DNA from: Candidatus Omnitrophota bacterium
GTDB lineage: Bacteria > Omnitrophota > Gorgyraeia > 2-02-FULL-51-18
Direction of reading: 5' to 3'
Assembly: GCA_945877765.1 (NCBI GenBank)
Contig: CAMDWQ010000010.1
Span: 5,679 to 69,678 of the forward strand
Length of the DNA stretch: 64,000 bases
A program made the position numbers and the translations under genes. Shown in pieces: positions 2,746 to 55,221 of the stretch. The notes under the pieces are model-generated. The model was given only the letters and a program-made list of their open reading frames with translations, was not told the origin of the DNA and searched no databases. Each line of letters opens with the position of its first letter. Position 1 is the first letter of the stretch.

Positions 2746-2768
2746 CAAACAACCAAAAGGACTCTTTC

Positions 2769-3380: not shown

Positions 3381-3843
3381 TCAGCTAAAAAGACCCAAAG
3401 GGGCAAAAAAAAGACATAAAGTGGTGGGTCGCGGGCGCGGTTCAGGACATGGCAGAACCTCAGGACGCGGAAACAAAGGTCAAAACTCTCGTGCTTCAGG
3501 CGGAGTGCGTCCCGGATTCGAAGGTGGGCAGATGCCTCTTATACGTCGTATCCCCAAGCGCGGATTTACGTTTACGCCAAAAGCAAAATATGAAGTCGTT
3601 TCCTTGGAAAGTCTTTCAAAATTTAGTGCTGGTACTGAAATTACGCCCGAATTTTTGAAATCGGCTCGGTTGGTCAATCGCAAGGACCCCAAAGTTAAAA
3701 TTTTGGGAGACGGCATGCTCAAGCATGCATTGACGATTAAAGCGCACGCTTTTTCGAAATCCGCCCTTGAGAAAATTAAAAAATCCGGCGGCAAGGCCCA
3801 TATCATCGCAGCGGCCGGAAGTTCGGAACCCTCGGCGTCCTAA
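3373..3843 (+). CDS. rplO: 50S ribosomal protein L15
   Basis: 156 aa; Gly/Arg-rich N-terminus; overlaps rpsE by 8 nt, with no L30 gene between them. Confidence 0.9.
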
Positions 3844-10268: not shown

Positions 10269-10305
10269 AGAGCCTCTTTTGTTTAAGCGCAAAAGAGGCT
10301 TTTTT
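10269..10305 (+). terminator. Rho-independent terminator of the ribosomal/rpoA operon
   Basis: GAGCCTCTTTTG / CAAAAGAGGCT stem with loop tttaagcg, followed by TTTTTT. Confidence 0.65.
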
Positions 10306-10375
10306 GCTATAATATTTTCTGGTTTTTCGAGCCGGAGGCGGGTCCCTCTTTGGCGGATAATCACACAAATACCTT

Positions 10376-11575: not shown

Positions 11576-11620
11576 AAGATTAAAATAATAGATAAAAAAT
11601 AGAGAAGGGCAAGAAAAAAA

Positions 11621-12706: not shown

Positions 12707-12712
12707 ATCACC

Positions 12713-13657: not shown

Positions 13658-13663
13658 TTTTCG

Positions 13664-38961: not shown

Positions 38962-41900
38962 ATGCGCCGCTCGCCTTATTTAAAAATTATTTCGTTAGCT
39001 CTGATCATTAGCTTTTCCTTCTCCAACCTCCTCTATGCCGCCGACCCACGGGATCTCTTAAACGCCGCCAAAGCAGGCTTTGCCCTAGAAGACCAACGGC
39101 GTACCGGCGGGGAAGCGCCCCTAAATAATCAATCGCAAGGCTATGCCCAAGGATTGGTTGATCAGAAAAACAACCTAGCAGACCTAGAGCAATTAAACTT
39201 TTCTTTAACGACACAAAACGGAGATATTCTTAAGTATGCAGGCGATAAGCTAGCCCAGATCCAGCGGCCCGATGGAACGATTCTTCAAAATATTGTTTTA
39301 GCCGCGGACGGCAAAATCCAGAATGCGGATTTAAAACTCTTTGACGGTTCGATTCAGGTTTTTCAAAATGGCCAAGTCATAGGCTATGAGACTCCCGATG
39401 GAACCCAAGTCTTTTATGCCAACAGCCAGATACAAAAAACCATTTCTAAGAGTGGTGTTGAAACCCTCTACGCCTACACCAAAGACGCCAATGGGAAGGT
39501 CCTTGAGACTATCCTTGAGAACTCTCAAGCTAAAACCATCTATGATGCCCAAGGCAAATTAAAGGAAGTGTATCAGAAAGGACTATCTCAGCGGATGGTC
39601 TATCAGGCAGGAATTCTTCAAAGCATCACTCTGCAAGATGGCTCTCAAGCCCTTTTCCAAGCACAGACCATCAATAGCCAAGTCAAAGTTACGTTTAAGT
39701 CATATGTGGATGCGAATGGCAACACGTATGTGAATGATATGCAGTATCTTCTGAAAGATGGCTCTTCGCTAAAAAATATTATCTGGGGTAGTGATGGAAA
39801 AGTGGTTAATGCCTTACTCGAAAGCATCGACGGCAGCACCTACACTTTTACTAACAAGGTAATTACCGCCATTAGGCTTCCCAGCAATTGGGTACTCTCT
39901 TCCATCACCTGGGATACTCAAGACAAATTAAAAGACGGGATTCTTACGGATTTGGCTAATAACCAGTGGACCTATCAAGCGGGGGCACTGGTATCAATCA
40001 AGCTTCTGGACGGATCTATTCTATCGAGCATCACCTGGGATGCCCAAAATAAGATCAAAACTGCTAATTTAATAGACGCGCAAAAAAAGGAATACACTTT
40101 TGCCAATAATCAGCTCTCACAGCCTCTCAATGCGATCGCCTTTCAGCTTGATACCCAATACGGCCTTGTTGCCGGCAATAGCACCTACCAGTTCAACTGG
40201 GCGGGCAAGAATGAAAAATGGTTTAAGGCCAACAATAATACTTGGTATTTTATTCTCCCTGATGGCAAGGTGTATCTTTGGAATTCCGTTGCGGGTAAGA
40301 ACCTCACCACCTCCACGCTTGTAGTGACGCTAAACAGCAGTTATTGGGAAGATCCGGCATTTCTCTGTGATGCCTCCGATAGGGCAATAGTTCTCCAGCT
40401 TGATACTCAATATAGCCTTGTTCCCGGAAGCAGCACCTACCAATTCAACTGGGCCGGTCAGAATGAAAAGTGGTTTAAGGCCAACAACAATACCTGGTAC
40501 TATATTCTTCCCACAGGTCAATTGTATCTTTGGGATGCCAAGGGTGGTAAGAATCTCACCACCTCGACACTGGCAGCCACCCTCAACAGCCATTTTTGGG
40601 AAGACCCCACAAAGGTCCATCTTGCTTTTGAGAGAGCTGCTCTAGAAAGCACCGCGCTAAATCTAGATCGCCAGTACGCTCTTATTCCCAGTAGTAGTAA
40701 TTATTTCTTAAATTGGGCCGGTCAACAGGAAAAATGGTTTAAGAGTAGTAGCGGTACTGCCCAGTATTTTATACTCTCCGACGGAAGCTTGTATCTATGG
40801 AATCAACCCGCCGGAAAAAACCTCGCTACCTCCACAAAGCTTGCCACCCTCAGCGCTGATTACTGGGCAAATCCGACACTTCTTTGCCGCGCCTATGACC
40901 GCACAGTCGCAGTAGTCGTCACAAGCGCCTACACCGCAAAGATTATAGGTATCACCAAACCGCAAATTTCCGTGTCCAAAAGAACGCTCAGCGCGTCGAA
41001 ATTAAACATCGCTACTCTGAGCGCCGCTTTTTCGTTTAATTCAATTTTGTATAACACGGATGGAAGTTTTGCTCAGATCCTAGAAAAGGACAACACGACG
41101 CTTAATTTCAAAAATAATCTTTTGGTGGATGCCAAAGACGCGCAGGGAAAAATCATCCATTTTGATTTCACGGAGAGTGCTTTTGGAAATCTTTTAGGTT
41201 CAAGCCTCACGCAGAGCGGCGCGACATCCACCTATGATGAACAGGGAAATCTTTCCTCGGTAAAAGTGGGTGATACGACGATTCATTACAGCGCGGAAAA
41301 TAAAATCGAGTCCGTTGAGAAGGCGGACGGGACACGAGTGGAGAATATTATTTTTGATGCGCAAGGGAATATTCATGATGCCAAGATGACCGCGCCCGAT
41401 GGGACTCAGAGGACCTATCAGGCCAAAAAAATGATTCGTGAAAAAAAAGCTGATGGCACGGAGACTGATTTTGTGGACGGCAAGCCTTCGGTGACGCGGA
41501 TGGCGGACGGGCGGGTGTATGTCTATTCGCCGGCGGCTATTATCGGGAACTCTGCCGCTTTTAGGAGTATTTTGACGCAGTACGTCTCTGACGATGGAAG
41601 CGCTGTCTATGTCAATGACGGCATTCCCTTTAAAATCCAGACTAAGTCGGGCATGGTGTTGACAAATCTTGTGTTCGCGCTAGACGGTACTCTGACGGAT
41701 GCGATCGGATCTTTTACTGGGCCCGATGAAAATCAGATGACTTTAACCTATCAAGGTAAGGAAGTCAGGCAAATCATTTCCGCTGACGGCTCACGTCTAT
41801 TTTATGAAAATAATCGGCTTAAAAGCATGACCAAGCCCAATGGCGAGCAGATTATCTACGAATACACCCTCGATGGTGATGGGGAGATCTTGAAGATTAT

Positions 41901-44900
41901 TCTTAAAGACGCCTCTGGTACGCGGATTTATAATCCTGCTTTTGGAAAATCGTCCGAGCTTGTGGATGATGATTTGGTGAATCAGGACGGGGGAGAAGTC
42001 GATTTGGGACGCGCACTTCCTGCGATGGACCTATTGAGTTATTTCAAGGCGATCGAAAATACGACTACCCATTTGCCGGAAAGTCATGTGGGTATCAATG
42101 ACCCGCTGACTATTTCTTATACCTACGATGTGGCGCTGTATCTTTTGGCGGGAGCGTCTAGTGGCGGAGCTATTTTAGATTACATTATCAGTAACCCGGA
42201 AAAAATGATTAATACGACGTACGTCCCATCTGGCGGCATGTATAGCGATCTATCGACGTTGGGCGGTCAGGCGGGATTTGATCGAAACAGTGTGGTGGCG
42301 GGACCCAACGCGTGGATTGGTTTGGCTGCCTTGAAGCAATATCAAAAAACACAGGACGTAAAATATCTCAATTTTGCCAAAGCCCGAGCGGCCTTCATCA
42401 AGACGCTCTCGGATCCGTCAGGCGGTATCGTCATGGGGCCTGCAGGTCAATGGGGGATTCCCCCCTTCTCAGATCTTAAGTCCACGGAAAATAATCTATC
42501 CGCCCTCTATTTATACCAAGCGCTCTATACAGCGACCAATGACGCGCAATATCTTGCCGCGGCGGATAGTCTCTGGGCCTACGTAAAGACTCTTTATGAC
42601 CCGACCTTACACGCTTTTAGCCGCGGGGAACACAAGGGCGGCGGGGAGTGGCTTAAAGACAGTGCCAATGTTTTTGCCACGGACGTTTTGGCGTGGATGC
42701 CGTTTGAGCGCGTGGTGAATGATTCATTTTTTGGAGCGGATGTATTAGCCCGGCTAAAAGAAGTCGAGAATATGATTCGTGCCGCGGAGAAATACACGGG
42801 TCTTTTTACTCCGGTCGGTGATATTCAGGGTTTTAGTTATTCACCTGAGAGTAAAGATCGCAGTGTGATTTCCATTGAGTGGTCTGCTCAGATGGCCAAT
42901 CTTTATCTAAAAATTGCCCGCAGTTATAAGCAACTAGGAAATGACGTCAAATACCGTTTTTATGGATCTCGCTATCAAAAGTTGACCGCCTCGCTTGAGA
43001 CATTCGTCAAGACAGATGCTTCGGGTGTGAGTAGGGCTCCTTATGCTGTGTATCAAAATGGAAAAGGCGCTTACGGCGAGTTTACAGGGCATGGTTGGGC
43101 AACCCCTTCTCCCAAAAATCAAAATGGGGATGTTTTTAGCATGGCGAGTATCTATTATCAATTTTCACGTCAAAAAACAGATCCCTTGACCCTCGCCAAT
43201 GGATCCATCCTCTCGGCTAATTACATCAGCCAGGCCGATATTGATAAATATTCGGGCACGAGTTTACGCGATCAAAAATATTTTGACGCCGTGACCTCGC
43301 TTGAGCGCTATGAAAATGAAAAGTTTACGGCGGTATATTCCAAGGGCACTCTACGGAGTATCCAATATGAGAATATTTTGATCAACAATCCTGTGATTGA
43401 TGCCCGTGGATTTTTGGTGTCGGCAGAAATTCACACCCCTGATGGCCAGGTGTACACACTCAAAGATAGAAAATTGGCAACCCTCCTAAGGGCTAATGGG
43501 ACGCTTTTGGGTTATGAAGGAGACCTTATCGTGGATGTAACAGCGCCCAATGGAAAAAAAGTCCATTACACGTACACCAAAAATGCCCAAGGGTATGTGA
43601 CCGGCATCGCTGTGGAATACAACACCGGAAATGGGTGGATCGGTAAACCGATAGCGGAGTACTTATTTGATCCTGCCAACACCGAAGAAAAACCGATTCA
43701 TCAAACGAATTATCACTTGGCCGGTGATGACTACCGACAAGGTTCTGTTGGATCCTCAACAATTGGTAGCGGAGAATCGGAGTGGTTTGGTTCGGCGCAG
43801 GGACTGGACCCATTAGATCCCGAGGCCCGTCTTGTTTTTGATTCCAGCACGCTGGAGGGGACCGGTGACAGGAATTTTATAGATATTCAAGCGTATCGCT
43901 ACGATCTTGAATGGCCGGACAATATGCTTTCCGTCCAAAATGACAGTTTTGTATTTTTGAGAGCAAAAGAAACAAATTCTTCTACCGATGTTCATTTATC
44001 TCCCTATTGGATGACCGCGTCAGGATTATTGCTTTGGGTGCCGCTTCAAAATGGGTTTGATATCCCTCTCACTGATCAATATCAAAATCATCTGATTTCA
44101 ATCCAACCGGATGCGCTGGTTGTGGGTAGAAAAACATTTAACCTCCGCCTGGTTTTCGCGACGCCCATGCCCGCAGCCGCCCCATGGAAAATTTCTATCG
44201 CGGAGATGGATTATTTTCAATTAAAGCACATTGAGCCCGAGGATTACTTGCAGTACTTAAATCTTTCCCAAGAGCAGATGCTGGACGTTTCTAGGAAACC
44301 TTTAAAAAATGACGCCATGGATCTCCTTGAAGGGTCTCAGATCGTATCCAATTTTAATCATCAAAAGGAAGCCGAAAAGTTTTTGATCGCCATGGATCTT
44401 GACGCCAACTACAACTATTTATCCGGGACACGTGTGGATAAAAGTGTGGAGCGATATGCGGGCGGTAAGGTGGCAAGCCTGCTCAAGAATGGCTCTGAAG
44501 AGACCTACGAGTACGATGTCAACGGGCAGATCCAAAAAGTCATCAATAAAGACGCCGCGACTCAAGCGGTAAAGACAGTCACGTATTATCAATACGGACG
44601 CATCCGGCGGGTCGAGGACGCATCTGCGAAAGCGCTTTATACCTACAGCTACCAGACGGATTCTGCCAACAATGAAATTACACTCGTCAAAGATGAGGCA
44701 ACGGGGGAGCTAAAGCATTATCAAGGTAGTCGGCTCACGCAGATGGACAATGCCGACGGCACGCGAACGCTTTATTTTTATGAAAATACGGATGAGAGGA
44801 TTTCTCGCTCGCAGATCATGAGCGGTCAGAGTATCCTTGCAAAGTTTTCCTATTCCTATGAGGGCGCCAACACGCTTGTTACTGACGCTGATGGCGCCAC

Positions 44901-47900
44901 GAAAGTCTATGACGCCAACAACCTGCTTCTATCGATCATCACTCAAGGAGGTTTGGAATACCGGTTTAATCATTTAAAAGATGAGGCGGGCAATGCCGTG
45001 GAGGAGCAATTTTTGTATTCGGCCAAAACTGAGGATGGAATGACGCTCTTTTATAAAAATGACACCGTGGACAAAATTCAGCTAAAAGACGGGACCGTGA
45101 TTAATGTTTCCGAGGCGGATCAGGATTTGTATCAAAAAGTACTGATTAAGCAAGGCCTCGTGGACCAGGTGATTCATAAGACCGGGGAGCTTGCCGTTTA
45201 TATCCGTAATAATCGCGGGGATTTGAAAGAAGTCCGTGTCAGTAAAGCTGGGCAGGAGTACCGCTACACGCCCGATGGCCGTCTCGTAAGCCGCACAGAT
45301 GTTGGCGGCGTCACTTATCATTATGGATATATTTTGGATGGGGCTGGAAATATATCCAAGACGCGCGTGGTAAAGCGTACGGCAAAATTAATTGGGGGCG
45401 ATCTGCCAACAGTGGATCCGAATACCGGTGATTTTCTGAGACTGAGTGTTTTGTCTGCCGGGATTGTGGATGGGTGGAACGCAGGTCTATTTGCCAATGA
45501 CGAAGGTGTGGGGCATTTTGATACCAATTTCTGGCGGAATTCGTCGGATCAATGGACAGGCCGTGGGTATGACGTCGCCGTTGTCGATGCCAAAGGCAAA
45601 CTTATTAAGTCCGATCTTTTCGATATCTGGCAGCTTGGGGGCTCAGAAGCCGACCGGATGGCACAGTTTATTGAGCAAGTCCCTGTGGGAAATTATGTCC
45701 TCATGGCGGTCGGTGATGAAGGCGCTCTCAACATGACCGAGCGCGCTTACAAAGCCCTTGAGTCGCTGGGAAGCGCTCAGATACGAAATCTAAAGTTCAG
45801 GGGATCGTGGGGTCTTATTGGTAGAAAAGGTGCCGCTATTGGCACAGCCATCGAAGGTCTCCGAGATAGCCAAAAAGGCTACGTCTCTTTGCAAAATTAT
45901 GATACCGAGTATAGCTATTTTGATAAAAAGGGTGTTCCGATACCCTACGACCAATTCACCGCCGTTATTTCTCAAAATTGGAACAGTAGCTACCAGAGTT
46001 ATGTGGGGGATGCGGGGGAAATTCTTAAGACATCGGTCTATAGTGATGAATATGCTATCGCCTATCACAAAAATTATAATGAGCTCTATCCTGACTCCGG
46101 TTTTATTCAACTTTGGAATGACCGTTACCTTAATCAATTTACAGTCAATGAGTATGCCCAGGGAATCATAGATAAGGTTTCAACTACGGCTACCGCCAAA
46201 TATGTCTATTACGATAGCCGCTACCCGTTTAATTATGTCCACCCGCTTTTTGCAGTCGCTCTAAAAAATATTCTGGCGGCCAATGGCTTTCGGGTGATTG
46301 ATGCCAACCAGCTTGCGGAAGTCATGAAATTAGAAGGTTCTCACGCGGTGATTGTCTCGGCGCACGATGTGATGCCGGATACCATCTATGACCCCAATTC
46401 TATTTTTTCTATTTCTTATCGAAAGCTTTCGCGTACTTTTATGGAGAATGGCGGCACGCTCGTGTGGATGGGGGATCTGCCTTTTTATTACACGGGACAC
46501 GCGGACGGCAGTAAGACCATTGTCGGTGAGATCGGAGCGAAGACAGTTTTGGGGGTGATGCCTCTGGCGCGCGGCCTTCGTGCTCCGGTGAGTAGGACCT
46601 ATGTGCAAACTTTTGATGAATGGACGTTTATTAGCGGATGGATTCACGGAAATGGCGCGACGATTCAAAACGGGACTCTCCGACTGACTTCCCAATTGCC
46701 ATCAATAGTAGGCTCGGCAAGCGACCAAAACTTCAAGCCATCAACCGGGCTTTTGCGGTATACGGTTGATTTTAAAAATAATACGCTCAACTCAGGCTTT
46801 GAAACTTATCTAGAATTTCAAAATTTTACCCCTTATCAGACTCTGGGGATTCGCCAGGAAAACGGTGTGTTTAAATTTATAGGAAAGACTCCAGTGACCG
46901 GCGGATCGTCAGTGATTACCAATTTGGGCCAAGCTGCTTATGTTGCCGGCGTGGAATACACAGTGATTTTTGAAACCGAAAACAATGTCCTTAAAGTATT
47001 TTTATATCAAAAAAATCAGCCACAGCCCGAGGTGCCTACATTTTCAATCGCTAATGTGGACCCAAGCGTTGGGGCGAGTATTGGATTTAATATTCAGCAG
47101 GGTGAGGCGTTGGTCACAAGTCTTAAAAGAGATGAGAGGGAATACGAGATTATTTCTACGCAAGCGCCAAGCATTACTCCCGATTTTAGTTTGAAGGGCG
47201 GCGAGGCGGCGTTGGATACCTCCTTGCTTTATTTCGATACCAATGTCAATTTCCGGACGGTGCGTTGGGACAAGATTCAGGAATCGATTGGCTATTCGCT
47301 TGATAGCGATACGGCCGTGGTGTCCGATTACGATAAAAATGGTGATCTTATTTCCATTGCCAAGGCGGATCGCACGGTGACCACGTATGAAAACCAAAAA
47401 GTGCAGTTGGTGACGGACATCAACGGGTATGTTCTTGTGGAGTACGCTTACGATGCACAGGGTGCTTTGACTTCCATTACCAATGTCGGCCAAAGAAGAG
47501 AGCTCGCCGATCACATTGAGGACGCCAAAGACCGGGCCAATTTTGAGAAGCTATTTCTTTTTGAAGATGTTGCCATTGAGCATAATCTTACCGCTGGAGA
47601 GCCCATTGCTAAAAGTGCTCGCATCAGGTCGTTGGCGCACAGCGCCAATGTTCTCGACGGCGGACCTGAACCAGGAAGGTCATCGATGGGCATTGTTGCC
47701 GATGAGCTCATCAGTGAGCACGCAGAAAAATATCGCCAAGAGAATCCAAAGACGCTCGAGGGGGAAGTAGGAACAGACCCTTTCTGGATACAGGTTGCCG
47801 ATGGGTACTTGGCATACTCCAGCGCGAGACTGGAAGCGCTAAAAGTTTTACGTAGTACTCAAGATATCAAAGCCAAGAGCAGGGACGCCAAGAAAGAAAA

Positions 47901-50900
47901 GTCCAAGGCTCTTGACCGGGTGCGGGACATTATCCGAGATATCGACAACAGGGAAAATGAATATCACCAGACGGTGCTTCAAGCGATTTTCAATTTCAGC
48001 GCCGCTGTGCTCCAGCAGAAAAAAAATGAAATTGAGGCCGATTATCAAAAGGCATTTGATGCGCTCGCAGTGCAGACGAGCAATTTTGAAAAAGAAATCC
48101 AGAAAGAAGAGTCCAAGCCCGTCATCTCCGATTATTACCGCTCTATCTTAGGTCGCGATGCCACCAGCGCTGAGATTGAATCCTATTATCCGCAAATTGC
48201 ACAAAATGGAAAAATCAACGCCGCGGCTTTGGGCGTCAACTTGCGAAATTCAGCTGAGTTTATCCAAAGAACCAGTCGCGTTGGTAAGATTCGCGGGGAT
48301 GTCGAAGCGGCGCTGGATGAATATGTTTCTGCAGACACAGGCAAAAAAGCTACCCTTCTTGCCTCGCTAGGTCTTACTCCCTCCGAAGTCGTTAACCTCT
48401 CCGCGCAAGACATTCAAAAAATAAAAGATTACCTTCGTTCTCAAGCCCTGCATTTTGGCGAATCCGCTATCGAATCTTTGATGGCGCTGATCAAGTCCAG
48501 GGGGATTTCTCCCAACCGCGACGAATTGGCCGCCAAGCTCATTCTCATTGATATCTTCGCGGGCATCATTCACCCCTATTTGAAAGAAGGGGAGGAAATG
48601 CTCCTGTCGGCTTATTCGCTTCAGAAAGTCGCCGCTTTTTACGGGGTGGAAGCACAGACACTAAATCTTACCTATGAAGACATGCTCGCCATTTTTTCTG
48701 CAGGAACATCCTCTGCACGAGCGATTTTACACACAGAAGGTATTCATTATTCGGTGCTTACCGCGATCACCGCTGACCAAGTGACTATCCTTGAATACAA
48801 CGGTGATTCCCGCACCATGTCCAAGGCCGATTTTCTAAAATCGTGGAAGGGGGTAGCCCTTGTTGAAAAATCTACCGCCGCCCCCGTTCTCACCGGCCCC
48901 CAGAAATCAGCCACCGCACGTGTATTAAATTCAGATGAAGCCCGACAGATCAAGGGTGGATTCTTTATGTTTATCCCTTTTATCTTCACGATGCTTGCGC
49001 ATATAGCCGCGACCATCGGCGCCATCATTGCTAGCATCGGTACGATTATTGCCCAGATTGGCATCATGGTCGGCCAGATCCTACAGGGTTTGGGCGGCCT
49101 TCTATACCAGTTCGCCCAAGGCGTCGGCGCCGTTGTCAAAGGTCTCTGGACCGGCATCAAATTTGTCGGCATGAAAATTTTCACAGGCTTCGCCAAATTT
49201 TTCGGCCCGACCCTCGCCAAAGCCGCCGCCGGTGAGGCACTAAAGGTTACTGTTGGCCAGACCATTCTCAACAATGTCATCCGAATGGGTGTTAGCTACG
49301 TCGTCTCCAAAGGCCTCGACGCGCTGGGCGTGGACCCTATTGTCACGAGCATCATCTCAACGTTTGTGACAGGCGGGATGCACGGAGGATTTACCTCGCA
49401 AGGCTTCAATTTCGGCTTCAGCCTAGCCGACGGCCTCAAAGCAGGTCTCCAGTTAGGCGCCAAAACATTCCTCCAAGCCGCCGGGCTTGACCCCCAGCTT
49501 TCGGGAATCTTATCGATGACGACAGGCCCCTTGGTGAATGGGGTGTGGACGGGGAATGTGGGGGGAGAGTTATTTAAGATTGCGCCGGAGCTTACAACCA
49601 GCTTAGCTCAATACGGGATAGACAAACTCGGAAAATCGCTGGGGTTGGATCCGAGGCTGACAGGATTGATTTCAGCGCCAATCTCATTGGCGATAGGGAA
49701 AAATTTCCAGACTGGGAATATCTTCGGCCAAGATGTCATTAAGGCCGTCCAAGATGGCATTTTCCGAGGAGCTATCGCGTACGGCGTCGACTTTGCCGCC
49801 AATAGAATTACCGACAACAAGCTTCTTCAAGCCTTAAGCTCACGGCTTATCTCTGGAGCCATTGAAGGAACATTCCTTCAAAAAGATCTCTTTGCGGGAG
49901 TCGTTGGCGCCCTAAAGCAATCCGTTGTCGGCATTTTTGGAGCTAACCAAAGCGATGTTCTCGGCAATATTGTAAACTTCTCAACATTGGTGGCACAAAA
50001 TGGTTTTAAGAACGCCGCAGAGCTCTATTTGACCAATATCTTCAACAAACAGAGTATTGAAGCCATCTATCGCTTGGGCGGTATCGCAAGCGCTCTAGCG
50101 TCTCCTAAAACTCAAGTCACTCTCCCCGACGGAAGAGTTGCCTATCAGACAGTCACCTCCTCGGGAGAAGCGATAATCTTTGACGCCATGAACAACCTGC
50201 TCGGCTTTCAGAGAAACGGTCTTTATCAGATAGGAGGGTTTGGTATCACCAGCGCCGGATCCTTTGGGCTTATCAGTGGAAAATCTTTTGGAATGATCGC
50301 CGGCGGCTCATCATTTGAAGCCTCCATCCAAAATGGAAAAGTGACACAAATCACAACCTACACCGACCAAGTCCGCCTGGATATAGATTTGGGTGAAGGA
50401 ACGGATGGCATTCGTTTTGATTCCGACGGAAACCTGACCGATGGAAGGATGACGTTGGATGAGAGGATAGATTTTACGGTAGTCAATGGCACTGTTTACG
50501 GGATTGAGCTAGATAAAGAAAATCCAAATACAACCTCCGTTAACGATGCGTATGCGTTTGCTGAGCGTATTATTAGTGCTGTGCTGGATGGCTCGGGGAG
50601 TTCGAGTTCTGGGTCTAGCGTGATTGACCAATTGCAAAAAGAGCTCATCACTTACTATCTATTTGGTAATGGATTTGAGAATGAAAGAAGGAAAGAAGAT
50701 ACCCTTGATCCGCTTTTGAAGTTTTATACAGATAATCTGGAATTCGATGATCCTAAAGTGATTACTGAGGGTCAAAAAATTGTGGTGGATCTCTATGAAT
50801 TTACCAAAGTCGCCGGAAACGGTTTGGATTGGCTAGGGGATTTCAATCCCGTATTTTTAGTTTTGTTGTTAGGCGTGTTAGGCCTGACCTACGTCGCCGC

Positions 50901-51681
50901 CGATAGAATCATCCAAAAGGTGATCAACAACGAATCTCTGGATTCATCCGCCTCGGACGGAGAAAAATCTTTTTATCAAAAAGTACAAGATTACCTAAGA
51001 AAATTTAGCGAACAGACAGGTCTTGGCAATAATCTCGTACTTGAAACCATCAGACAAATGGAAGCATTGCAAGCCAAAAAAGGAAAGCTAAAAGATGCTA
51101 TCGCATTCGTTCACTCAGGGGCCACAGCCCCCGTTTTAAGTGCCATCGAGCAAATGCAATATGATGTAGAAACAGTGCTTATCTATGAAGGGCCCCACCC
51201 AAACTACACCGCACAATTTACAAATCCAAGCTTAAAGCGTATTATTCATGTCATGGGGTCGAGCCACGGCCTATTAGACAGCTCGCTCGAGGGAGACGCG
51301 CCTGTGCCGTTTTTGGGATGGGCAAACTTTAAAAACCCAGCCAACGTTGATTTTAAAAACATCAATATTGAAATTGAGGGTGCCTGGCACAGCGATTATG
51401 CCTATAACGCAGAGGAATGGGATAAAAAAATCGCTGCTGTTACAGGAAGCACCCCAACCGCGGTTGAGGCTGATCGAAATCGCATCAGAGCACTAAAGGA
51501 AAGAAATAGAAAAGTGAATTTATTCATGAGGGATTTGTATCAGGCGGCCTACAAAGATCAGACAAATCAAGGGCTCTTGGACGATTTTTTTGAAGATCTA
51601 AAAACAAAAGGCGCAGCCAATCTAGAGAGTGGCATCTGGAAAATTGATCCCACAAAATTAAGAGATGTGACCCCCCAATGA
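38962..51681 (+). CDS. Giant secreted multidomain protein (4239 aa) with YD/RHS-type repeats, a triplicated 83-aa module, a FAM3/ILEI-like domain, a DUF4214-like motif, an inactive C39-like peptidase fold, a Gly/Ala-rich hydrophobic region and a C-terminal GxSxG domain
   Basis: Uninterrupted ORF with ribosome-binding site and signal peptide MRRSPYLKIISLALIISFSFSNLLYAADP; many Y.YD..G repeats; the domain evidence is given in the findings. Confidence 0.85.
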   Translation: MRRSPYLKIISLALIISFSFSNLLYAADPRDLLNAAKAGFALEDQRRTGGEAPLNNQSQGYAQGLVDQKNNLADLEQLNFSLTTQNGDILKYAGDKLAQIQRPDGTILQNIVLAADGKIQNADLKLFDGSIQVFQNGQVIGYETPDGTQVFYANSQIQKTISKSGVETLYAYTKDANGKVLETILENSQAKTIYDAQGKLKEVYQKGLSQRMVYQAGILQSITLQDGSQALFQAQTINSQVKVTFKSYVDANGNTYVNDMQYLLKDGSSLKNIIWGSDGKVVNALLESIDGSTYTFTNKVITAIRLPSNWVLSSITWDTQDKLKDGILTDLANNQWTYQAGALVSIKLLDGSILSSITWDAQNKIKTANLIDAQKKEYTFANNQLSQPLNAIAFQLDTQYGLVAGNSTYQFNWAGKNEKWFKANNNTWYFILPDGKVYLWNSVAGKNLTTSTLVVTLNSSYWEDPAFLCDASDRAIVLQLDTQYSLVPGSSTYQFNWAGQNEKWFKANNNTWYYILPTGQLYLWDAKGGKNLTTSTLAATLNSHFWEDPTKVHLAFERAALESTALNLDRQYALIPSSSNYFLNWAGQQEKWFKSSSGTAQYFILSDGSLYLWNQPAGKNLATSTKLATLSADYWANPTLLCRAYDRTVAVVVTSAYTAKIIGITKPQISVSKRTLSASKLNIATLSAAFSFNSILYNTDGSFAQILEKDNTTLNFKNNLLVDAKDAQGKIIHFDFTESAFGNLLGSSLTQSGATSTYDEQGNLSSVKVGDTTIHYSAENKIESVEKADGTRVENIIFDAQGNIHDAKMTAPDGTQRTYQAKKMIREKKADGTETDFVDGKPSVTRMADGRVYVYSPAAIIGNSAAFRSILTQYVSDDGSAVYVNDGIPFKIQTKSGMVLTNLVFALDGTLTDAIGSFTGPDENQMTLTYQGKEVRQIISADGSRLFYENNRLKSMTKPNGEQIIYEYTLDGDGEILKIILKDASGTRIYNPAFGKSSELVDDDLVNQDGGEVDLGRALPAMDLLSYFKAIENTTTHLPESHVGINDPLTISYTYDVALYLLAGASSGGAILDYIISNPEKMINTTYVPSGGMYSDLSTLGGQAGFDRNSVVAGPNAWIGLAALKQYQKTQDVKYLNFAKARAAFIKTLSDPSGGIVMGPAGQWGIPPFSDLKSTENNLSALYLYQALYTATNDAQYLAAADSLWAYVKTLYDPTLHAFSRGEHKGGGEWLKDSANVFATDVLAWMPFERVVNDSFFGADVLARLKEVENMIRAAEKYTGLFTPVGDIQGFSYSPESKDRSVISIEWSAQMANLYLKIARSYKQLGNDVKYRFYGSRYQKLTASLETFVKTDASGVSRAPYAVYQNGKGAYGEFTGHGWATPSPKNQNGDVFSMASIYYQFSRQKTDPLTLANGSILSANYISQADIDKYSGTSLRDQKYFDAVTSLERYENEKFTAVYSKGTLRSIQYENILINNPVIDARGFLVSAEIHTPDGQVYTLKDRKLATLLRANGTLLGYEGDLIVDVTAPNGKKVHYTYTKNAQGYVTGIAVEYNTGNGWIGKPIAEYLFDPANTEEKPIHQTNYHLAGDDYRQGSVGSSTIGSGESEWFGSAQGLDPLDPEARLVFDSSTLEGTGDRNFIDIQAYRYDLEWPDNMLSVQNDSFVFLRAKETNSSTDVHLSPYWMTASGLLLWVPLQNGFDIPLTDQYQNHLISIQPDALVVGRKTFNLRLVFATPMPAAAPWKISIAEMDYFQLKHIEPEDYLQYLNLSQEQMLDVSRKPLKNDAMDLLEGSQIVSNFNHQKEAEKFLIAMDLDANYNYLSGTRVDKSVERYAGGKVASLLKNGSEETYEYDVNGQIQKVINKDAATQAVKTVTYYQYGRIRRVEDASAKALYTYSYQTDSANNEITLVKDEATGELKHYQGSRLTQMDNADGTRTLYFYENTDERISRSQIMSGQSILAKFSYSYEGANTLVTDADGATKVYDANNLLLSIITQGGLEYRFNHLKDEAGNAVEEQFLYSAKTEDGMTLFYKNDTVDKIQLKDGTVINVSEADQDLYQKVLIKQGLVDQVIHKTGELAVYIRNNRGDLKEVRVSKAGQEYRYTPDGRLVSRTDVGGVTYHYGYILDGAGNISKTRVVKRTAKLIGGDLPTVDPNTGDFLRLSVLSAGIVDGWNAGLFANDEGVGHFDTNFWRNSSDQWTGRGYDVAVVDAKGKLIKSDLFDIWQLGGSEADRMAQFIEQVPVGNYVLMAVGDEGALNMTERAYKALESLGSAQIRNLKFRGSWGLIGRKGAAIGTAIEGLRDSQKGYVSLQNYDTEYSYFDKKGVPIPYDQFTAVISQNWNSSYQSYVGDAGEILKTSVYSDEYAIAYHKNYNELYPDSGFIQLWNDRYLNQFTVNEYAQGIIDKVSTTATAKYVYYDSRYPFNYVHPLFAVALKNILAANGFRVIDANQLAEVMKLEGSHAVIVSAHDVMPDTIYDPNSIFSISYRKLSRTFMENGGTLVWMGDLPFYYTGHADGSKTIVGEIGAKTVLGVMPLARGLRAPVSRTYVQTFDEWTFISGWIHGNGATIQNGTLRLTSQLPSIVGSASDQNFKPSTGLLRYTVDFKNNTLNSGFETYLEFQNFTPYQTLGIRQENGVFKFIGKTPVTGGSSVITNLGQAAYVAGVEYTVIFETENNVLKVFLYQKNQPQPEVPTFSIANVDPSVGASIGFNIQQGEALVTSLKRDEREYEIISTQAPSITPDFSLKGGEAALDTSLLYFDTNVNFRTVRWDKIQESIGYSLDSDTAVVSDYDKNGDLISIAKADRTVTTYENQKVQLVTDINGYVLVEYAYDAQGALTSITNVGQRRELADHIEDAKDRANFEKLFLFEDVAIEHNLTAGEPIAKSARIRSLAHSANVLDGGPEPGRSSMGIVADELISEHAEKYRQENPKTLEGEVGTDPFWIQVADGYLAYSSARLEALKVLRSTQDIKAKSRDAKKEKSKALDRVRDIIRDIDNRENEYHQTVLQAIFNFSAAVLQQKKNEIEADYQKAFDALAVQTSNFEKEIQKEESKPVISDYYRSILGRDATSAEIESYYPQIAQNGKINAAALGVNLRNSAEFIQRTSRVGKIRGDVEAALDEYVSADTGKKATLLASLGLTPSEVVNLSAQDIQKIKDYLRSQALHFGESAIESLMALIKSRGISPNRDELAAKLILIDIFAGIIHPYLKEGEEMLLSAYSLQKVAAFYGVEAQTLNLTYEDMLAIFSAGTSSARAILHTEGIHYSVLTAITADQVTILEYNGDSRTMSKADFLKSWKGVALVEKSTAAPVLTGPQKSATARVLNSDEARQIKGGFFMFIPFIFTMLAHIAATIGAIIASIGTIIAQIGIMVGQILQGLGGLLYQFAQGVGAVVKGLWTGIKFVGMKIFTGFAKFFGPTLAKAAAGEALKVTVGQTILNNVIRMGVSYVVSKGLDALGVDPIVTSIISTFVTGGMHGGFTSQGFNFGFSLADGLKAGLQLGAKTFLQAAGLDPQLSGILSMTTGPLVNGVWTGNVGGELFKIAPELTTSLAQYGIDKLGKSLGLDPRLTGLISAPISLAIGKNFQTGNIFGQDVIKAVQDGIFRGAIAYGVDFAANRITDNKLLQALSSRLISGAIEGTFLQKDLFAGVVGALKQSVVGIFGANQSDVLGNIVNFSTLVAQNGFKNAAELYLTNIFNKQSIEAIYRLGGIASALASPKTQVTLPDGRVAYQTVTSSGEAIIFDAMNNLLGFQRNGLYQIGGFGITSAGSFGLISGKSFGMIAGGSSFEASIQNGKVTQITTYTDQVRLDIDLGEGTDGIRFDSDGNLTDGRMTLDERIDFTVVNGTVYGIELDKENPNTTSVNDAYAFAERIISAVLDGSGSSSSGSSVIDQLQKELITYYLFGNGFENERRKEDTLDPLLKFYTDNLEFDDPKVITEGQKIVVDLYEFTKVAGNGLDWLGDFNPVFLVLLLGVLGLTYVAADRIIQKVINNESLDSSASDGEKSFYQKVQDYLRKFSEQTGLGNNLVLETIRQMEALQAKKGKLKDAIAFVHSGATAPVLSAIEQMQYDVETVLIYEGPHPNYTAQFTNPSLKRIIHVMGSSHGLLDSSLEGDAPVPFLGWANFKNPANVDFKNINIEIEGAWHSDYAYNAEEWDKKIAAVTGSTPTAVEADRNRIRALKERNRKVNLFMRDLYQAAYKDQTNQGLLDDFFEDLKTKGAANLESGIWKIDPTKLRDVTPQ

Positions 51682-52175
51682 AAAATAAAGCTATTTTAAT
51701 ACTCGCAGGATCGCTACTCACTCTAATTTTGCTATTTATTTATTTTACAAACTCAAGAGCGACATATTCCAAGATAGCTGTTCGCTCAATCGATGAAAAT
51801 AAAATTTACGTTGGCGATGAAAAGCCAGGACTAGAATCAGCATCGGATGAGGCTAGTAGCTTTGCTAAGACTGTAGAGGGGCTTAACGAAGGTTGGGATA
51901 ATATTGGAACAGGAGAATCTTATTATAGAGCAGGGCAATATGAGGAGGCTGTAAAAGCTTATAAAAAAGCATACGATGTCGATCCTGGAAACAGGACTCT
52001 CTCAGGCAACAAATTGATCAACGTTTACGAAAAGCTCTCCCGATACGACGAAGCCATCGCCCTAGTAGATGAAATCTTAAAAACCCAACCACTTGTTGAA
52101 TATGGCATAGCGAAGTTCACCGCCATCCGCACTCGCCTCCTCGCCGCCAAAGTCCAATCTGCCAAAGCTGAATGA
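51678..52175 (+). CDS. Small membrane-anchored TPR-like protein, translationally coupled to the giant gene
   Basis: 165 aa; ATGA stop/start overlap; N-terminal transmembrane segment; helical repeats YYRAGQYEEAVKAYKKAYDVDP. Confidence 0.6.
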   Translation: MKNKAILILAGSLLTLILLFIYFTNSRATYSKIAVRSIDENKIYVGDEKPGLESASDEASSFAKTVEGLNEGWDNIGTGESYYRAGQYEEAVKAYKKAYDVDPGNRTLSGNKLINVYEKLSRYDEAIALVDEILKTQPLVEYGIAKFTAIRTRLLAAKVQSAKAE

Positions 52176-52355: not shown

Positions 52356-54437
52356 TTGACTGAAGAAATAGTTCCCATCGTATCACCCTCCGAAAGAAAA
52401 ACCCGCGCCACTAGTTACGAGTTGTCAATTAAGACTTTCTTAGAGGATCTCCAATTTAAAGATGTGGATGGGGCAAGAGATTCATTTTTAATAGGCGAAA
52501 ATCAGGTTGATGTTTGCGGAGGTCATGAGGATACACTCCTGATCATAGAATGCACGATGAAGCAAGCATTGGGGAAAAAATTGCTAATTGCCAAGATTGC
52601 GGAGTTAAGAGGAAAAAGGGATGTATTCCAAAAAGGCTTTAGAAAAAGCGAGAAGTATGGGCATTACAAAAATTTTAAATATATTCTTTCGGTGCGTAAT
52701 ATTCCGGTGCGTCGAGAAGATATTGATTATGCGAACAAAGACGAATGCAGAATTTATATATGGGATGATAACTGTATTGATTATTACAAGGATCTATATT
52801 CCAAAATCGGCGAATATGCCAAGTATGAACTTTTGGGTGAAATAGGGATTAGGCCGGCAAGTGGAAACACTGTTAGTATCCCAGCGGCTTGCACAAATAT
52901 TGCTGGATCTGATGTCTATTTATTTTTTGCAGACCCACGAACGTTACTCGAAGTTTCATGTGTCGCAAGACGTGAAAAGGGGCAAGAACGATACTATCAA
53001 AGGATCATAAACAAAAAAAAGCTTAAACAAATTGCTTCATATGTTGAGACTGGGAATATCTTACCCAATAACATCATAATAGGCATTAGTGAGCAATCCC
53101 GAAAATATTTAAAATTTACACCATGGCAAACCAAGCTTGATTACAAGCAACAATTATTGCAGTATGGTGTTAAATATGGAATTTTAGAATTTCCGAAAGA
53201 TTATCGTAGTTGCTGGATAATAGATGGACAGCATCGTCTCTACTCTTTTATAAACACAAAAAAACCTATTTATTTGCCTGTTGTTGCTTTTCATGATCTT
53301 AGCATGGAGAGACAATGCAAATTATTTTTAGACATCAATAAAAACCAGAAGCCTGTTCCTCCAGATTTAGTTTGGGATCTTAACGGTGACATGATTCCTT
53401 CCGAACCTGACGGCATTATTTCAAGCGTTGTCAAAAGTCTTAACGAAATGGAGCCGTTAGCTAGAAGAATCCACATTCCATCAAAGGGAATGCAAACATC
53501 TCACGGCTATTTAAAAATGTCGGGAATTTGTTTGAGTTTAAAAAGAACAAAATTAGGGACCCATGTTACGTATAGCAAGACTGAAAATCCATTTTGGAAT
53601 AAAAACCCCGATGAGACGGTTCGCCAACTCTCCAAAGCACTTTCAATATACTTTATTGTCATAAAAGATATTCTCAGAAAGGATTGGGAAAGGGGGGATA
53701 AGGGCTTGGCTCTTTCTAACGGGTCCAACTCGATATTAATTAGAATTTTTGAGAGAATTGTTTCCAACTGTGTGCTTAAAAAGAACGCTGTCAAAGCATC
53801 GGATTATGAAAAATATTTAAAGCCTCTTGGTAAATATTTAAACGAAAAAACGGATGAAGATTATAAAAAGATTCGTTTGATGGCCTCCAGCGAGGGCGGA
53901 AAAGATAACCTTTTGAGGGATTTTGTTTTATACATTCGAAAAGAAACAAATGACTGGCAATTTGGTGGAAATATAGATGCATCGGGATCCTCTGAAATAA
54001 AGTCTCTTGAAAAAAGATTTAAGGATTTGTTTGAATTAAAATTTAAAGAAGATAGGGCAGAGGATGTTCTTTCAAAGGATCTTTATGGCAAGGCATCAAA
54101 ATATCTTTCAACGCACGGCCTATCAAAACGTGATATTTATCGACAATTAACTTTTGGTGAGTGTGTTCGTGTTTTAAGGGAGAAAAAGGACATATTTTAT
54201 CCTAGTTTTGTTGGGTCTAATTGTGAATTTCATGCCGAAATTGATTTTGAGTCAGCATTAGGGCATATCACTAGGCACAGGAACAGCCAACTTTCACACG
54301 ATATTGGTGCGGCTGCTCGGGATACGGACGATCCGTTATTTAAAATTTACATTGATAAAATAAATAAATGTATAAATGGTATTTTGGGGGAAAGCGAAAA
54401 CGATGAGGAGGCAGAGGACGATAGTGATGAATTATAA
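52356..54437 (+). CDS. DGQHR-domain protein (DndB-like / ParB-nuclease superfamily) with an extra N-terminal nuclease-like region and long C-terminal region; TTG start
   Basis: Literal motif CWIIDGQHRLYSF at nt 53212-53250; ribosome-binding site GAGGA 6 nt upstream; acidic C-terminal tail. Confidence 0.7.
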   Translation: MTEEIVPIVSPSERKTRATSYELSIKTFLEDLQFKDVDGARDSFLIGENQVDVCGGHEDTLLIIECTMKQALGKKLLIAKIAELRGKRDVFQKGFRKSEKYGHYKNFKYILSVRNIPVRREDIDYANKDECRIYIWDDNCIDYYKDLYSKIGEYAKYELLGEIGIRPASGNTVSIPAACTNIAGSDVYLFFADPRTLLEVSCVARREKGQERYYQRIINKKKLKQIASYVETGNILPNNIIIGISEQSRKYLKFTPWQTKLDYKQQLLQYGVKYGILEFPKDYRSCWIIDGQHRLYSFINTKKPIYLPVVAFHDLSMERQCKLFLDINKNQKPVPPDLVWDLNGDMIPSEPDGIISSVVKSLNEMEPLARRIHIPSKGMQTSHGYLKMSGICLSLKRTKLGTHVTYSKTENPFWNKNPDETVRQLSKALSIYFIVIKDILRKDWERGDKGLALSNGSNSILIRIFERIVSNCVLKKNAVKASDYEKYLKPLGKYLNEKTDEDYKKIRLMASSEGGKDNLLRDFVLYIRKETNDWQFGGNIDASGSSEIKSLEKRFKDLFELKFKEDRAEDVLSKDLYGKASKYLSTHGLSKRDIYRQLTFGECVRVLREKKDIFYPSFVGSNCEFHAEIDFESALGHITRHRNSQLSHDIGAAARDTDDPLFKIYIDKINKCINGILGESENDEEAEDDSDEL

Positions 54438-54453: not shown

Positions 54454-55221
54454 TTGCGCTTAAATTTTGATGTATCGGTTGTCAGGGGTTTGAGAAGCGC
54501 CTCCCAAAGAGCGCGAGTTTTAACTGAGGACTGGGTTGATAAGCAAGTTTATTGCCCTAATTGCGGGCTTGTCGATATAGATAAATATCCAAATAATAAT
54601 CCCGCCGCCGATTTTCACTGCTCGAATTGCCATGAAGACTATGAGCTCAAAAGCAAAAACTCTAAAATTGGCACAAGAGTCGTCGACGGAGCCTACAAGA
54701 CATTGATTCAGAAGTTGCGGGGCAGTACCAATCCCAATCTATTTTTGTTAAATTACGATCCGCGAAGTCTTGAAGTTCAAAATTTTTTTGTGATTCCAAA
54801 GCACTTTTTTATTCCTGAAATTATTGAAAAGAGGAAACCGCTTGTACTCACCGCTCGCCGTGCCGGGTGGGTTGGTTGTAACATTCTTCTGCATGGCATC
54901 CCGCAAACGGGGAAAATTTATTTTGTAAAAAATCGTATTGTTGAGTCGAAATCAAAGGTACTTTCCTGTTGGAAAAAAACACTTTTTTTGAGAGAAGAAA
55001 AAGAGCTTGTCGCCAAAGGCTGGCTTTTGGATGTGATGCGCTGTGTCGAGCAGCTTAGCCAAAGTTTTTCACTTGATGAAGTTTATTCTTTCGCGGGAGA
55101 GCTCGGGATCAAACACCCTGGGAATCGACACATCAAGGATAAAATCCGTCAACAGTTGCAGGTTCTGCGTGAGAGAGGCTACCTCGAGTTTATCGGGCGA
55201 GGCCGTTACCGGCGCCCTTGA
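54454..55221 (+). CDS. DpnI-family methyl-directed (Gm6ATC) type IIM restriction endonuclease
   Basis: 255 aa; strong similarity as recalled to S. pneumoniae DpnI (QRARVLTEDWV..YCPNCG...ADFHCSNCHEDYELKSK...ARRAGWVGCNI...HIKDKIRQQLQVLRE...GRGRYR). Confidence 0.7.
   Translation: MRLNFDVSVVRGLRSASQRARVLTEDWVDKQVYCPNCGLVDIDKYPNNNPAADFHCSNCHEDYELKSKNSKIGTRVVDGAYKTLIQKLRGSTNPNLFLLNYDPRSLEVQNFFVIPKHFFIPEIIEKRKPLVLTARRAGWVGCNILLHGIPQTGKIYFVKNRIVESKSKVLSCWKKTLFLREEKELVAKGWLLDVMRCVEQLSQSFSLDEVYSFAGELGIKHPGNRHIKDKIRQQLQVLRERGYLEFIGRGRYRRP

Follow-up and report, generated by a model that had tools for sequence, protein, structure and literature searches.

A giant Omnitrophota protein with an interchangeable hydrolase-like C-terminal tip and a cognate membrane-anchored TPR partner: a candidate polymorphic effector-immunity pair

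Results

A giant gene and a small overlapping gene

The window analysed here, a stretch of 64,000 nucleotides (nt) at positions 5,679 to 69,678 of the forward strand of contig CAMDWQ010000010.1 (GenBank assembly GCA_945877765.1), belongs to a Candidatus Omnitrophota bacterium (GTDB lineage Bacteria; Omnitrophota; Gorgyraeia; 2-02-FULL-51-18) and contains a gene for a giant protein of 4,239 amino acids (aa), followed by a small gene for a protein with tetratricopeptide repeats (TPR), here called the partner. A first-pass annotation, made by a model from the letters and the list of open reading frames (ORFs), had taken the C-terminal tip of the giant protein for a hydrolase or lipase effector and the small protein for its cognate immunity or accessory protein. 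The start of the small gene within the stop codon of the giant one (ATGA) was confirmed from the sequence, as was the combination of an N-terminal hydrophobic segment and TPR units, the latter with Pfam scores above the gathering cut-offs. The results described below indicate that the tip is one of several unrelated domains carried at the end of a conserved scaffold, that it is predicted to be a divergent alpha/beta-hydrolase, and that the partner is specifically associated with it. The best-supported reading, which is held with moderate confidence, is that of a polymorphic effector-immunity system, in which a conserved scaffold bears a swappable C-terminal enzyme with a cognate downstream partner.

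From the N-terminus, the giant protein consists of a signal-peptide-like segment, YD/RHS-type repeats, an ILEI domain, a C39-like domain, a hydrophobic and Gly-rich region, a beta-rich region and the C-terminal tip (Table 1). Pfam recognised RHS_repeat (E=1.5e-18), ILEI (E=8e-24) and Peptidase_C39 (E=6e-8) in it, and returned no match across the last ~900 residues. The pre-tip module was delimited by BLAST along the protein, by hydropathy and by the C39 alignment, and is made up of four parts: the C39-like domain at aa 3160-3310, a hydrophobic block of ~55 aa at aa 3327-3382, a helical, Gly-rich region at aa 3383-3716 and, at aa 3717-3852, a beta-rich region. An AlphaFold2 model of aa 3310-3900 was of low confidence (predicted local distance difference test, pLDDT, 48; predicted template modelling score, pTM, 0.29), with a pattern that is all-helical and then beta-rich, and was excluded from the fold search. 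The YD repeats lie ~1,000 residues away from the tip, and no recognisable shell was seen beside the tip.

In the C39-like domain, the position of the catalytic Cys is occupied in 25 homologues by H-F-G-[QEHRD]-S-A-F, without a Cys, and the His (N-G-N-H-Y-V) is kept; the Cys position was placed by eye against the C39 consensus. By analogy with the substrate-binding domain of HlyB, the C39-like domain looks degenerate rather than like an active protease and, because the catalytic Cys is absent, its capacity for self-cleavage is doubtful.

The tip is a predicted alpha/beta-hydrolase

The portion of the giant protein spanning aa 3853-4239 is the one that other family members replace by unrelated domains, and it ends in the tip domain proper. 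When the last 351 residues served as query, the 90% clusters yielded six relatives, and a profile search of 1.84 billion representatives extended the set to 88 tip homologues, the closest of which come from records named Omnitrophica or Omnitrophota. The tip occupies the extreme C-terminus in all long homologues (2,000-4,500 aa).

The AlphaFold2 model of the tip, built on a 35-sequence alignment, has a pLDDT of 85.7, a pTM of 0.87 and six core strands. When it was compared with the PDB using Foldseek, every one of the top 50 matches was an alpha/beta-hydrolase, the set including PETases and cutinases, APT1, the lipase of B. subtilis and carboxylesterases. The candidate nucleophile is Ser4052, which in the model (tip residue 164) sits exactly at the turn from a strand (E158-163) to a helix (164-177). 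This serine and the following Gly4053 are present in 51/51 aligned homologues, and position 4051 is His or Tyr. The surrounding V-H-S-G-A sequence accords with the small-x-nucleophile-x-small pattern of an elbow, but its first small position is Val, Ala or Ser, unlike the textbook G-x-S-x-G. His4143 is likewise found in 51/51 homologues (G-A-x-H-x-D), with Asp4145 in 49/51. Asp4112 is invariant in the 7 close homologues; across the wider alignment an Asp stands in its column in 27/51 and in an equivalent G-x-x-D just past the strand in 18/51, giving 45/51 in total. The order nucleophile, acid, histidine is that of the fold, with Ser4052 after strand 3, Asp4112 after strand 5 and His4143 after strand 6, and these three residues are therefore predicted to form the catalytic triad, Asp4112 being the putative acid. 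A candidate oxyanion-hole turn, proposed from the general layout of alpha/beta-hydrolases, is G3902-N3903-G3904, of which G3904 (F-G-N-G) is kept in 50/51 homologues and N3903 in 43/51.

The motif that had originally drawn attention to the tip is a different one. The first-pass annotation placed a nucleophile elbow at G-S-S-H-G (aa 4099-4103); the motif is where it was said to be, but the role assigned to it did not survive. Its central Ser4101 is present in 1/51 aligned tips, that of the window protein, any GxSxG occurs in that loop in 2/51, and in most homologues the loop is either missing or dissimilar. In the model, G-S-S-H-G follows a strand within a long loop of pLDDT 67-68 and forms no strand-helix elbow. 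The giant protein holds five G-x-S-x-G motifs, against 2.2 expected from its composition. The hydrolase fold proposed in the same annotation was upheld on other grounds: from the AlphaFold model, the Foldseek matches and the invariant Ser and His with an Asp in canonical order, the tip is, by prediction, a divergent alpha/beta-hydrolase, for which we infer an esterase or lipase chemistry.

At the sequence level, no esterase, lipase or Tle profile matched the tip. Pfam returned no family at E up to 10 and NCBIfam had no match in the tip; neither the single sequence nor the 35-sequence profile matched a PDB chain, and no Pfam family was common to any of the 35 tip homologues at E up to 1. Profile-profile alignment with hhalign gave E=0.17 against B. 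subtilis LipA and E=0.11 against the alternative tip of a relative, L030, described below. Neither value is significant; both alignments are in catalytic register, His4143 being aligned with His156 of LipA and with the L030 His. The comparison with a further alternative tip (L034) was not significant either (all E = 0.11-0.17). The tip thus appears to represent an uncatalogued hydrolase family, characterised by an x-[HY]-S-G elbow and found in 88 representative clusters.

Two candidate features of the tip were rejected. A hydrophobic stretch at aa 3961-3979 resembles a transmembrane (TM) helix; it sits in an insertion, a possible lid, that is missing from distant homologues, and its hydrophobicity is not kept even in close ones. 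Proteins of ~200 aa that could pass for stand-alone tips, as if the enzyme were naturally split, turned out to be a frameshift in one case (P0003, locus L003) and 5'-truncated cassettes in the others (P0004 in L004, P0006 in L005). In L003, at ~3300..3410, the tip is divided into two ORFs by a +1 frameshift in the variable helical insertion, which may be a sequencing error or mark a pseudogene.

A small anchored TPR protein accompanies the tip

Residues 73-138 of the 165-aa partner match TPR_2 (E=9e-11, 41.4 bits against a cut-off of 27), TPR_1 (E=2e-10, 40.6 against 27.8) and TPR_19 (36.2 against 25). The positive-inside rule predicts a periplasmic location for the TPR domain. A homologous partner was found downstream of the tip in L001, L002, L004, L005, L006, L007, L010, L011, L012, L014, L015, L016, L020, L025, L027, L031, L033 and L035. 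It lies directly 3' of the tip in every related locus with downstream DNA, from close relatives (L006, L020) to those with 20-25% tip identity (L015, L016). Related loci, among them those in which tip and partner are of other kinds, repeatedly show a stop/start overlap, mostly of 1-11 nt or of the ATGA type. A common layout, consisting of an anchor or signal sequence, a variable linker, two TPR units and a C-terminal helix, is shared by the partners of 14 loci. When the partner was compared with the Lif family of lipase foldases, Pfam at E up to 0.01 gave TPR/PPR-type families only. The partner seems to belong to an uncatalogued family of small anchored TPR proteins and, as judged from its genomic association, is specifically tied to the tip.

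One member of the family departs from this layout. The partner of the displaced tip in L011 (9432..9863) has a lipoprotein-like N-terminus (…LLLVVSSC…) and no membrane anchor; therefore, the partner family would reach the periplasm by more than one way.

The same scaffold carries other C-terminal domains

Searches seeded with the tip cannot reveal alternative ends, and for this reason a search was seeded with the pre-tip module. Its outcome overturned the view of the tip as the constant, family-defining domain, which was an artefact of tip-seeded searching. In P0102 (L023), the hydrophobic/Gly-rich and beta-rich regions are retained at 38% identity, the C-terminal 345 aa are unrelated and there is no TPR partner; the downstream gene encodes 323 aa, overlaps the P0102 stop and has a faint signal for a Tricorn-type/PD40 beta-propeller, unconfirmed by a Pfam scan. 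A metagenome scan with a hidden Markov model (HMM) of the pre-tip module recovered 14 loci (E=1e-47 to 1e-128), which were classed by HMMs. Five carry this tip with the anchored TPR partner (L025, L027, L031, L033, L035), seven are complete ORFs with a different end domain and no member of the TPR-partner family downstream (L024, L026, L028, L030, L032, L034, L037), and two are cut by contig ends (L029, L036). The TPR partner is thus present at 5/5 tip-bearing loci of the scan and at 0/7 loci with other ends, and is also absent at L023.

The alternative C-terminal domains (the seven of the scan and that of P0102) measure 320-750 aa and are mutually unrelated by BLAST; homology to the window protein ends just after the beta-rich domain, at ~aa 3852 (nt ~50517). 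The L030 tip contains G-H-S-A-G, scores on the Pfam Tle3 model just under its cut-off (E=6e-6, 26.3 bits against 27) and exceeds the cut-offs of Abhydrolase_8 and DUF676. With the exception of L030, nothing was found for the alternative tips in Pfam, NCBIfam or PDB.

Downstream of every alternative tip lies a gene of its own, and the ATGA overlap is often seen there too. These genes encode HEAT-repeat proteins in L026 (no signal or anchor) and L037 (with one), a PD40 beta-propeller in L032, a longer TPR protein in L034 and an unknown protein of 196 aa in L030, the last three all with a signal or anchor, as well as unknown proteins lacking either in L024 and L028. Partners that bear a signal or anchor go with hydrolase-like or Cys-motif tips (L030, L032, L034, L037); the motifs of L032, L034 and L037 were read by eye, Pfam support being available for L030 only. 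In polymorphic toxin systems, immunity proteins track the compartment where their toxin acts. The covariation of tip and partner localisation fits immunity, because immunity proteins are expected to follow the target compartment of the toxin.

Displaced tip and partner cassettes occur in relatives

In several related loci, additional copies of the tip, of the partner or of both were found. In L005, a second tip and a second partner lie 3' of the main pair, to which both are ~35% identical; this tip is 5'-truncated and retains the three catalytic residues. In L011 a piece of the pre-tip region, with 32% identity to the main gene, comes after the main pair; then come an in-frame stop, a second, complete tip of a distant clade (A-Y-S-G-G elbow) and the lipoprotein-like TPR partner mentioned above. 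L014 contains a lone second partner (50% identical) between two Y1 (IS200-like) transposase genes, and in L001 and L004 truncated units of tip and partner lie beside transposase genes. Transposases of the IS200/Y1 type adjoin the cassettes in L014 (979..1881 and 2487..3383), L001 and L004 (1..159), and another was found at L030 (9579..10301), a locus with an alternative tip; the L014 pair was identified by eye, and the L030 and L001 copies by Pfam Y1_Tnp. This recurrence suggests that Y1-type elements move or break the 3' ends of giant genes.

The contig of L001 (GCA_021733565.1, 14,725 nt) has a structure of its own. The same series of genes, namely an IS200-type Y1 transposase, a truncated tip, a TPR partner, a 210-aa gene and a 605-aa TPR/PDZ gene, is found at ~466-5039 and at ~9102-13675. 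This corresponds to a direct repeat of ~8.6 kb with three transposase copies, and may be a circular element assembled over-length or a composite transposon with the cassette.

Table 1. Features of the giant gene, its partner and the adjacent genes (positions in nt of the window; residues of the protein concerned)
Feature	Position	Strand	Residues	Description
Giant gene	38962..51681	+		4,239 aa; ORF list and translation
Signal-peptide-like N-terminus of the giant protein	38962..39042	+		MRRSPYLKIISLALIISFSFSNLLYA/AD, judged by eye
ILEI domain	45562..45834	+	2201-2291	Full-length Pfam match, E=8e-24
Conserved pre-tip module	48439..50517	+		Common to all relatives regardless of tip
C39-like domain	48439..48891	+	~3160-3310	Partial Peptidase_C39 match at aa 3215-3304, profile positions 45-130 only
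Variable C-terminal module	50518..51678	+	3853-4239	Short helix, Ser/Gly linker and predicted hydrolase tip; from the junction alignment
Tip domain proper	50644..51678	+	3895-4239	Predicted divergent alpha/beta-hydrolase core; helical/hairpin extension at aa 4150-4228
Candidate oxyanion-hole turn	50665..50673	+	3902-3904	G-N-G just after the first core strand (model E11-14)
Helical insertion, possible lid	50809..51081	+	3950-4040	Between core strands 2 and 3; model helices 62-152
Hydrophobic stretch within the helical insertion	50842..50898	+	3961-3979	TM-helix-like; rejected as a TM helix
Nucleophile elbow V-H-S-G-A	51109..51123	+	4050-4054	Ser4052 at 51115..51117, predicted catalytic serine
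G-S-S-H-G motif	51256..51270	+	4099-4103	Flagged earlier; neither conserved nor an elbow
Asp4112 (E-G-D)	51295..51297	+	4112	Predicted catalytic acid; loop that follows core strand 5
His4143 (G-A-W-H-S-D)	51388..51390	+	4143	Predicted catalytic histidine, after the last core strand (E244-250)
ATGA overlap	51678..51681	+		Partner start codon overlaps the giant gene stop TGA
Partner gene	51678..52175	+		165 aa; translation and Pfam TPR families
Partner membrane anchor	51690..51746	+	5-23	19 hydrophobic residues after MKNK, by eye
Partner TPR domain	51891..52097	+	~72-140	Preceded by a variable linker of ~45 aa, followed by a C-terminal helix
DGQHR/DndB-like gene	52356..54437			693 aa, TIGR03187 E=2.5e-36; immediately downstream of the partner
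DpnI-like restriction endonuclease gene	54454..55221			255 aa, Pfam DpnI E=8e-74

Other features of the giant protein and of the window

The N-terminus of the giant protein (M-R-R-S-P-Y-L-K…LYA/AD) comes near to a twin-arginine motif, with one residue extra, and was taken by eye as Sec-type. At aa ~390-650 (~40130..40910) a unit of ~90 aa, recognised by eye, is present in three tandem copies (…LDTQY.LV.G.STYQFNWAG.NEKWFKANNNTWY.ILP.G.LYLW…), and no Pfam match covers them. ILEI, the "interleukin-like EMT inducer" domain, is known mainly from animal FAM3 proteins and from the stem regions of glycosyltransferases; its occurrence within a bacterial giant protein is unexpected.

The window is otherwise made up of chromosomal housekeeping genes, among them a ribosomal-protein/secY/rpoA cluster, an oligopeptide ABC transporter and biosynthetic genes. 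The DGQHR/DndB-like and DpnI-like genes just 3' of the partner have the look of a small defence pair dependent on DNA modification, and where the strain was recovered from other samples the same DGQHR gene again comes after the partner. A 449-aa protein with Schlafen AlbA_2, HATPase_c_4 and winged-helix domains (21466..22815) resembles a set of defence or regulation genes amid housekeeping ones. The ORF directly 5' of the giant gene (37862..38647, 261 aa) scores weakly, and below threshold, on DUF748/AsmA and on a GspN model of the Leptospira type, and is not conserved 5' of the related giant genes examined.

Discussion

Taken as a polymorphic effector-immunity system, which on balance we regard as the probable nature of the family, the locus would work as follows. 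A conserved scaffold, composed of the signal peptide, YD-type repeats and the Cys-less C39-like, hydrophobic/Gly-rich and beta-rich regions, would bear an interchangeable C-terminal effector, and the gene immediately downstream, usually overlapping, would encode an effector-specific partner. The effector of the window (aa ~3853-4239) would most likely attack a cell envelope as an esterase or (phospho)lipase. Its 165-aa partner, anchored in the inner membrane with the TPR domain in the periplasm, would bind the tip one-to-one in that compartment and block it, and this blockade would protect the producer and its kin. In this scheme we infer the substrate, the toxicity, the physical binding, the inhibition and the route of the tip to a target cell. 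The family shows, at the level of gene content and arrangement, the hallmarks of effector-immunity systems, namely interchangeable ends, partners whose type and localisation vary with the tip, orphan cassettes and transposases.

Several results weigh against this interpretation. The Foldseek matches are weak (the best, PETase 8ytu, has E=2.3e-3, and TM-scores are <=0.45), and no sequence profile ties the tip to any lipase family. Swapping is seen among distant relatives (26-45% scaffold identity), not between strains: near-identical strains from other samples are 99.9-100% identical over tip and partner, so that the variation between strains that the first-pass annotation had thought worth looking for did not appear in a comparison restricted to near-identical strains. 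Among tip-bearing relatives, the variability of the tip does not exceed that of the remaining part of the C-terminal 1,150-1,450 aa. Neither VENN nor PxxxxDPxGL is present in the giant protein, and the junction at ~aa 3852 has no short conserved motif. The window contains no orphan cassette and, among its ORFs scanned, no type V (T5SS/TpsB), type VI (T6SS), type VII (T7SS) or type I (T1SS) secretion system, the neighbours being housekeeping and defence genes; domains of VgrG, PAAR and Hcp were likewise missing from the giant protein and from the 37 other window ORFs scanned with Pfam. Finally, the primary topology of the partner, with an anchor, a variable linker of ~45 aa and a helical TPR domain, is that of a steric foldase.

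This last point leads to the main rival reading, in which the partner is a chaperone specific for the tip, of the kind that lipase foldases represent. It would be a steric foldase or holdase that is tethered to the inner membrane and exposes its helical domain on the periplasmic side, where it captures the tip as it leaves the Sec translocon and folds it, or holds it inactive until deployment, as LipH does for LipA. The overlapping stop and start, which suggests equimolar synthesis, and the strict co-occurrence of partner and tip are in keeping with such a role. On the other hand, the partners of L024, L026 and L028 have no signal or anchor, which is odd for periplasmic foldases of a Sec-exported protein, and it is difficult to see why a foldase should occur in truncated cassettes or as a single additional copy flanked by transposases (L005, L011, L014, L001, L004). 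Lif proteins measure ~340 aa in total, and the helical domain of the partner, at ~95 aa, is far below that size; Pfam moreover matched it to TPR families and not to a lipase chaperone. For these reasons a chaperone is considered unlikely as the sole function. The roles need not exclude each other, as E. cloacae Tli both neutralises and activates its lipase (bioRxiv 10.1101/2023.03.28.534661), and computation does not separate immunity from an accessory or chaperone function: of the pair proposed in the first-pass annotation, the tie between tip and partner and the family hallmarks stand, and the immunity label is left as one of these alternatives.

Less probable again is a reading in which the tip works within the producer, as a resident enzyme of the envelope. 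It might, for instance, be an esterase or acyl-transferase with a part in remodelling the producer's own envelope, or in the processing or attachment of the giant protein. The hydrophobic block would hold the tip at the inner membrane, the TPR protein would be an adaptor or regulator, and the varied C-termini would reflect functional diversification of surface enzymes, not toxin polymorphism. The tip lies ~520 residues past the conserved ~55-aa hydrophobic block, which may form a membrane hairpin; a hairpin would therefore place the tip and the TPR domain of the partner on the same face of the producer's inner membrane. A chromosomal locus amid housekeeping genes with no delivery system nearby, swapping at deep divergence only, uniform near-identical strains and a junction without a motif all agree with a resident enzyme, and the published views of Omnitrophota giant proteins favour prey adhesion and cell-wall degradation. 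Orphan cassettes with divergent alleles of tip and partner, and recurring transposases, are however unexpected for a housekeeping enzyme, the cytoplasmic-type partners of some tips do not fit, and one alternative tip (L030) resembles the T6SS phospholipase effector Tle3. The remaining explanation, a chance GxSxG in the tail of a repeat protein overlapped by an unrelated small TPR gene, is very improbable. In bacteria, neither a TPR protein nor a 4-nt overlap is unusual, and G-S-S-H-G is at chance level and unconserved; but the tip model is well folded, with invariant catalytic-type residues across 51 homologues, and members of the partner family accompany the tip, on its 3' side, in some 20 independent loci, whereas none lies 3' of a relative with another tip.

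The effector-immunity reading can be extended, more tentatively, to the whole cluster of C39 giant proteins, which might constitute a self-contained contact-dependent delivery system; the odds are against this extension. The Sec-exported scaffold would bind a prey or rival cell, and the module formed by the Cys-less C39-like, hydrophobic/Gly-rich and beta-rich regions would insert in the target envelope and translocate the effector that it carries. The effectors would be lipase-like hydrolases or other domains, and the downstream TPR, HEAT, beta-propeller and other proteins the matching immunity proteins. If true, polymorphic toxin machinery of a new class would exist in a phylum that has giant proteins with no biochemical role assigned to them.

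What is new here is a polymorphic-toxin logic on an unfamiliar scaffold, together with uncatalogued hydrolase and partner families. The C39 giant proteins of Omnitrophota gain a testable anatomy, with a fixed scaffold, a junction at ~aa 3852, interchangeable enzymatic ends and a cognate partner for each. If the pair is an effector with its immunity protein, these ultra-small bacteria would practise contact-dependent antagonism or predation with swappable toxins, and a simple two-gene assay, of the tip with and without the partner, would serve to probe it.

Comparison with known systems

The window protein resembles the C39-cluster giant proteins described in Omnitrophota in being very long and in having a signal peptide, hydrophobic segments and a Peptidase_C39 match. 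The PF03412 group is the largest architecture cluster among long Omnitrophota proteins, according to Nielsen & Lui 2026 (bioRxiv 10.64898/2026.06.07.730766), where the biochemistry of these proteins is called "not fully resolved". Adhesion, cell-wall degradation and possible C39 self-cleavage are discussed in that preprint and in West-Roberts et al. 2023 (bioRxiv 10.1101/2023.11.21.568195); in the window family, the C39-like domain has no catalytic Cys. A term search of the two preprints returned no mention of a hydrolase tip, interchangeable C-termini, a cognate partner or orphan cassettes.

With Rhs and CdiA proteins, the family shares a scaffold with YD/RHS-type repeats, a conserved body with unrelated alternative ends at one junction (here among distant relatives only), and an adjacent downstream gene that changes with the type of tip and would by analogy encode immunity. 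Orphan toxin/immunity modules, with transposases and retained upstream homology, are known 3' of cdi and rhs loci (PMC4927057); the displaced 5'-truncated cassettes near transposases are comparable, one of them with upstream homology, and occur in relatives and not in the window. Unlike Rhs and CdiA, the giant protein has neither VENN nor PxxxxDPxGL, the Cys-less C39-like, hydrophobic/Gly-rich and beta-rich regions intervene between the YD repeats and the tip, no TpsB/CdiB, VgrG/PAAR or other delivery genes were found in the window, and the tips of this family are large (320-750 aa).

The LipA/LipH pairs of Pseudomonas and Burkholderia offer another parallel, in that a lipase-type hydrolase is followed in the same operon by a gene for an anchored helical protein. 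LipH consists of a TM helix, an unstructured variable linker of 30-55 residues and a helical periplasmic domain, and is encoded in one operon with the lipase (PMC13381987). The window partner differs from Lif in having no sequence match to it and a much smaller helical domain, and the client it would serve forms the end of a 4,239-aa protein, whereas LipA is a free secreted lipase; furthermore, orphan cassettes and cytoplasmic partners of sister tips set the window family apart.

A further likeness is found in the Tle/Tli pairs of the T6SS, where, as in the window, an alpha/beta-hydrolase with a (here predicted) Ser-Asp-His triad is followed by a helical-repeat protein, which in the window is predicted to be periplasmic. 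In E. cloacae, the lipase effector Tle is an alpha/beta-hydrolase whose immunity protein Tli is a periplasmic helical-repeat protein, and similar lipase domains are found on CdiA C-termini (bioRxiv 10.1101/2023.03.28.534661). The window tip differs from these effectors in matching no Tle, DUF2235, DUF676 or other lipase profile, in its [VAS]-[HY]-S-G-x elbow as opposed to the G-x-S-x-G of Tle1-4, and in being fused to a Sec-type giant protein, with no T6SS delivery; its partner is a TM-anchored TPR protein, unlike E. cloacae Tli, an ankyrin-repeat lipoprotein. The sister tip of L030, in turn, scores on the Pfam Tle3 model. By analogy, T6SS lipase effectors with periplasmic helical-repeat immunity proteins appear to be the nearest mechanistic precedents for the tip and its partner.

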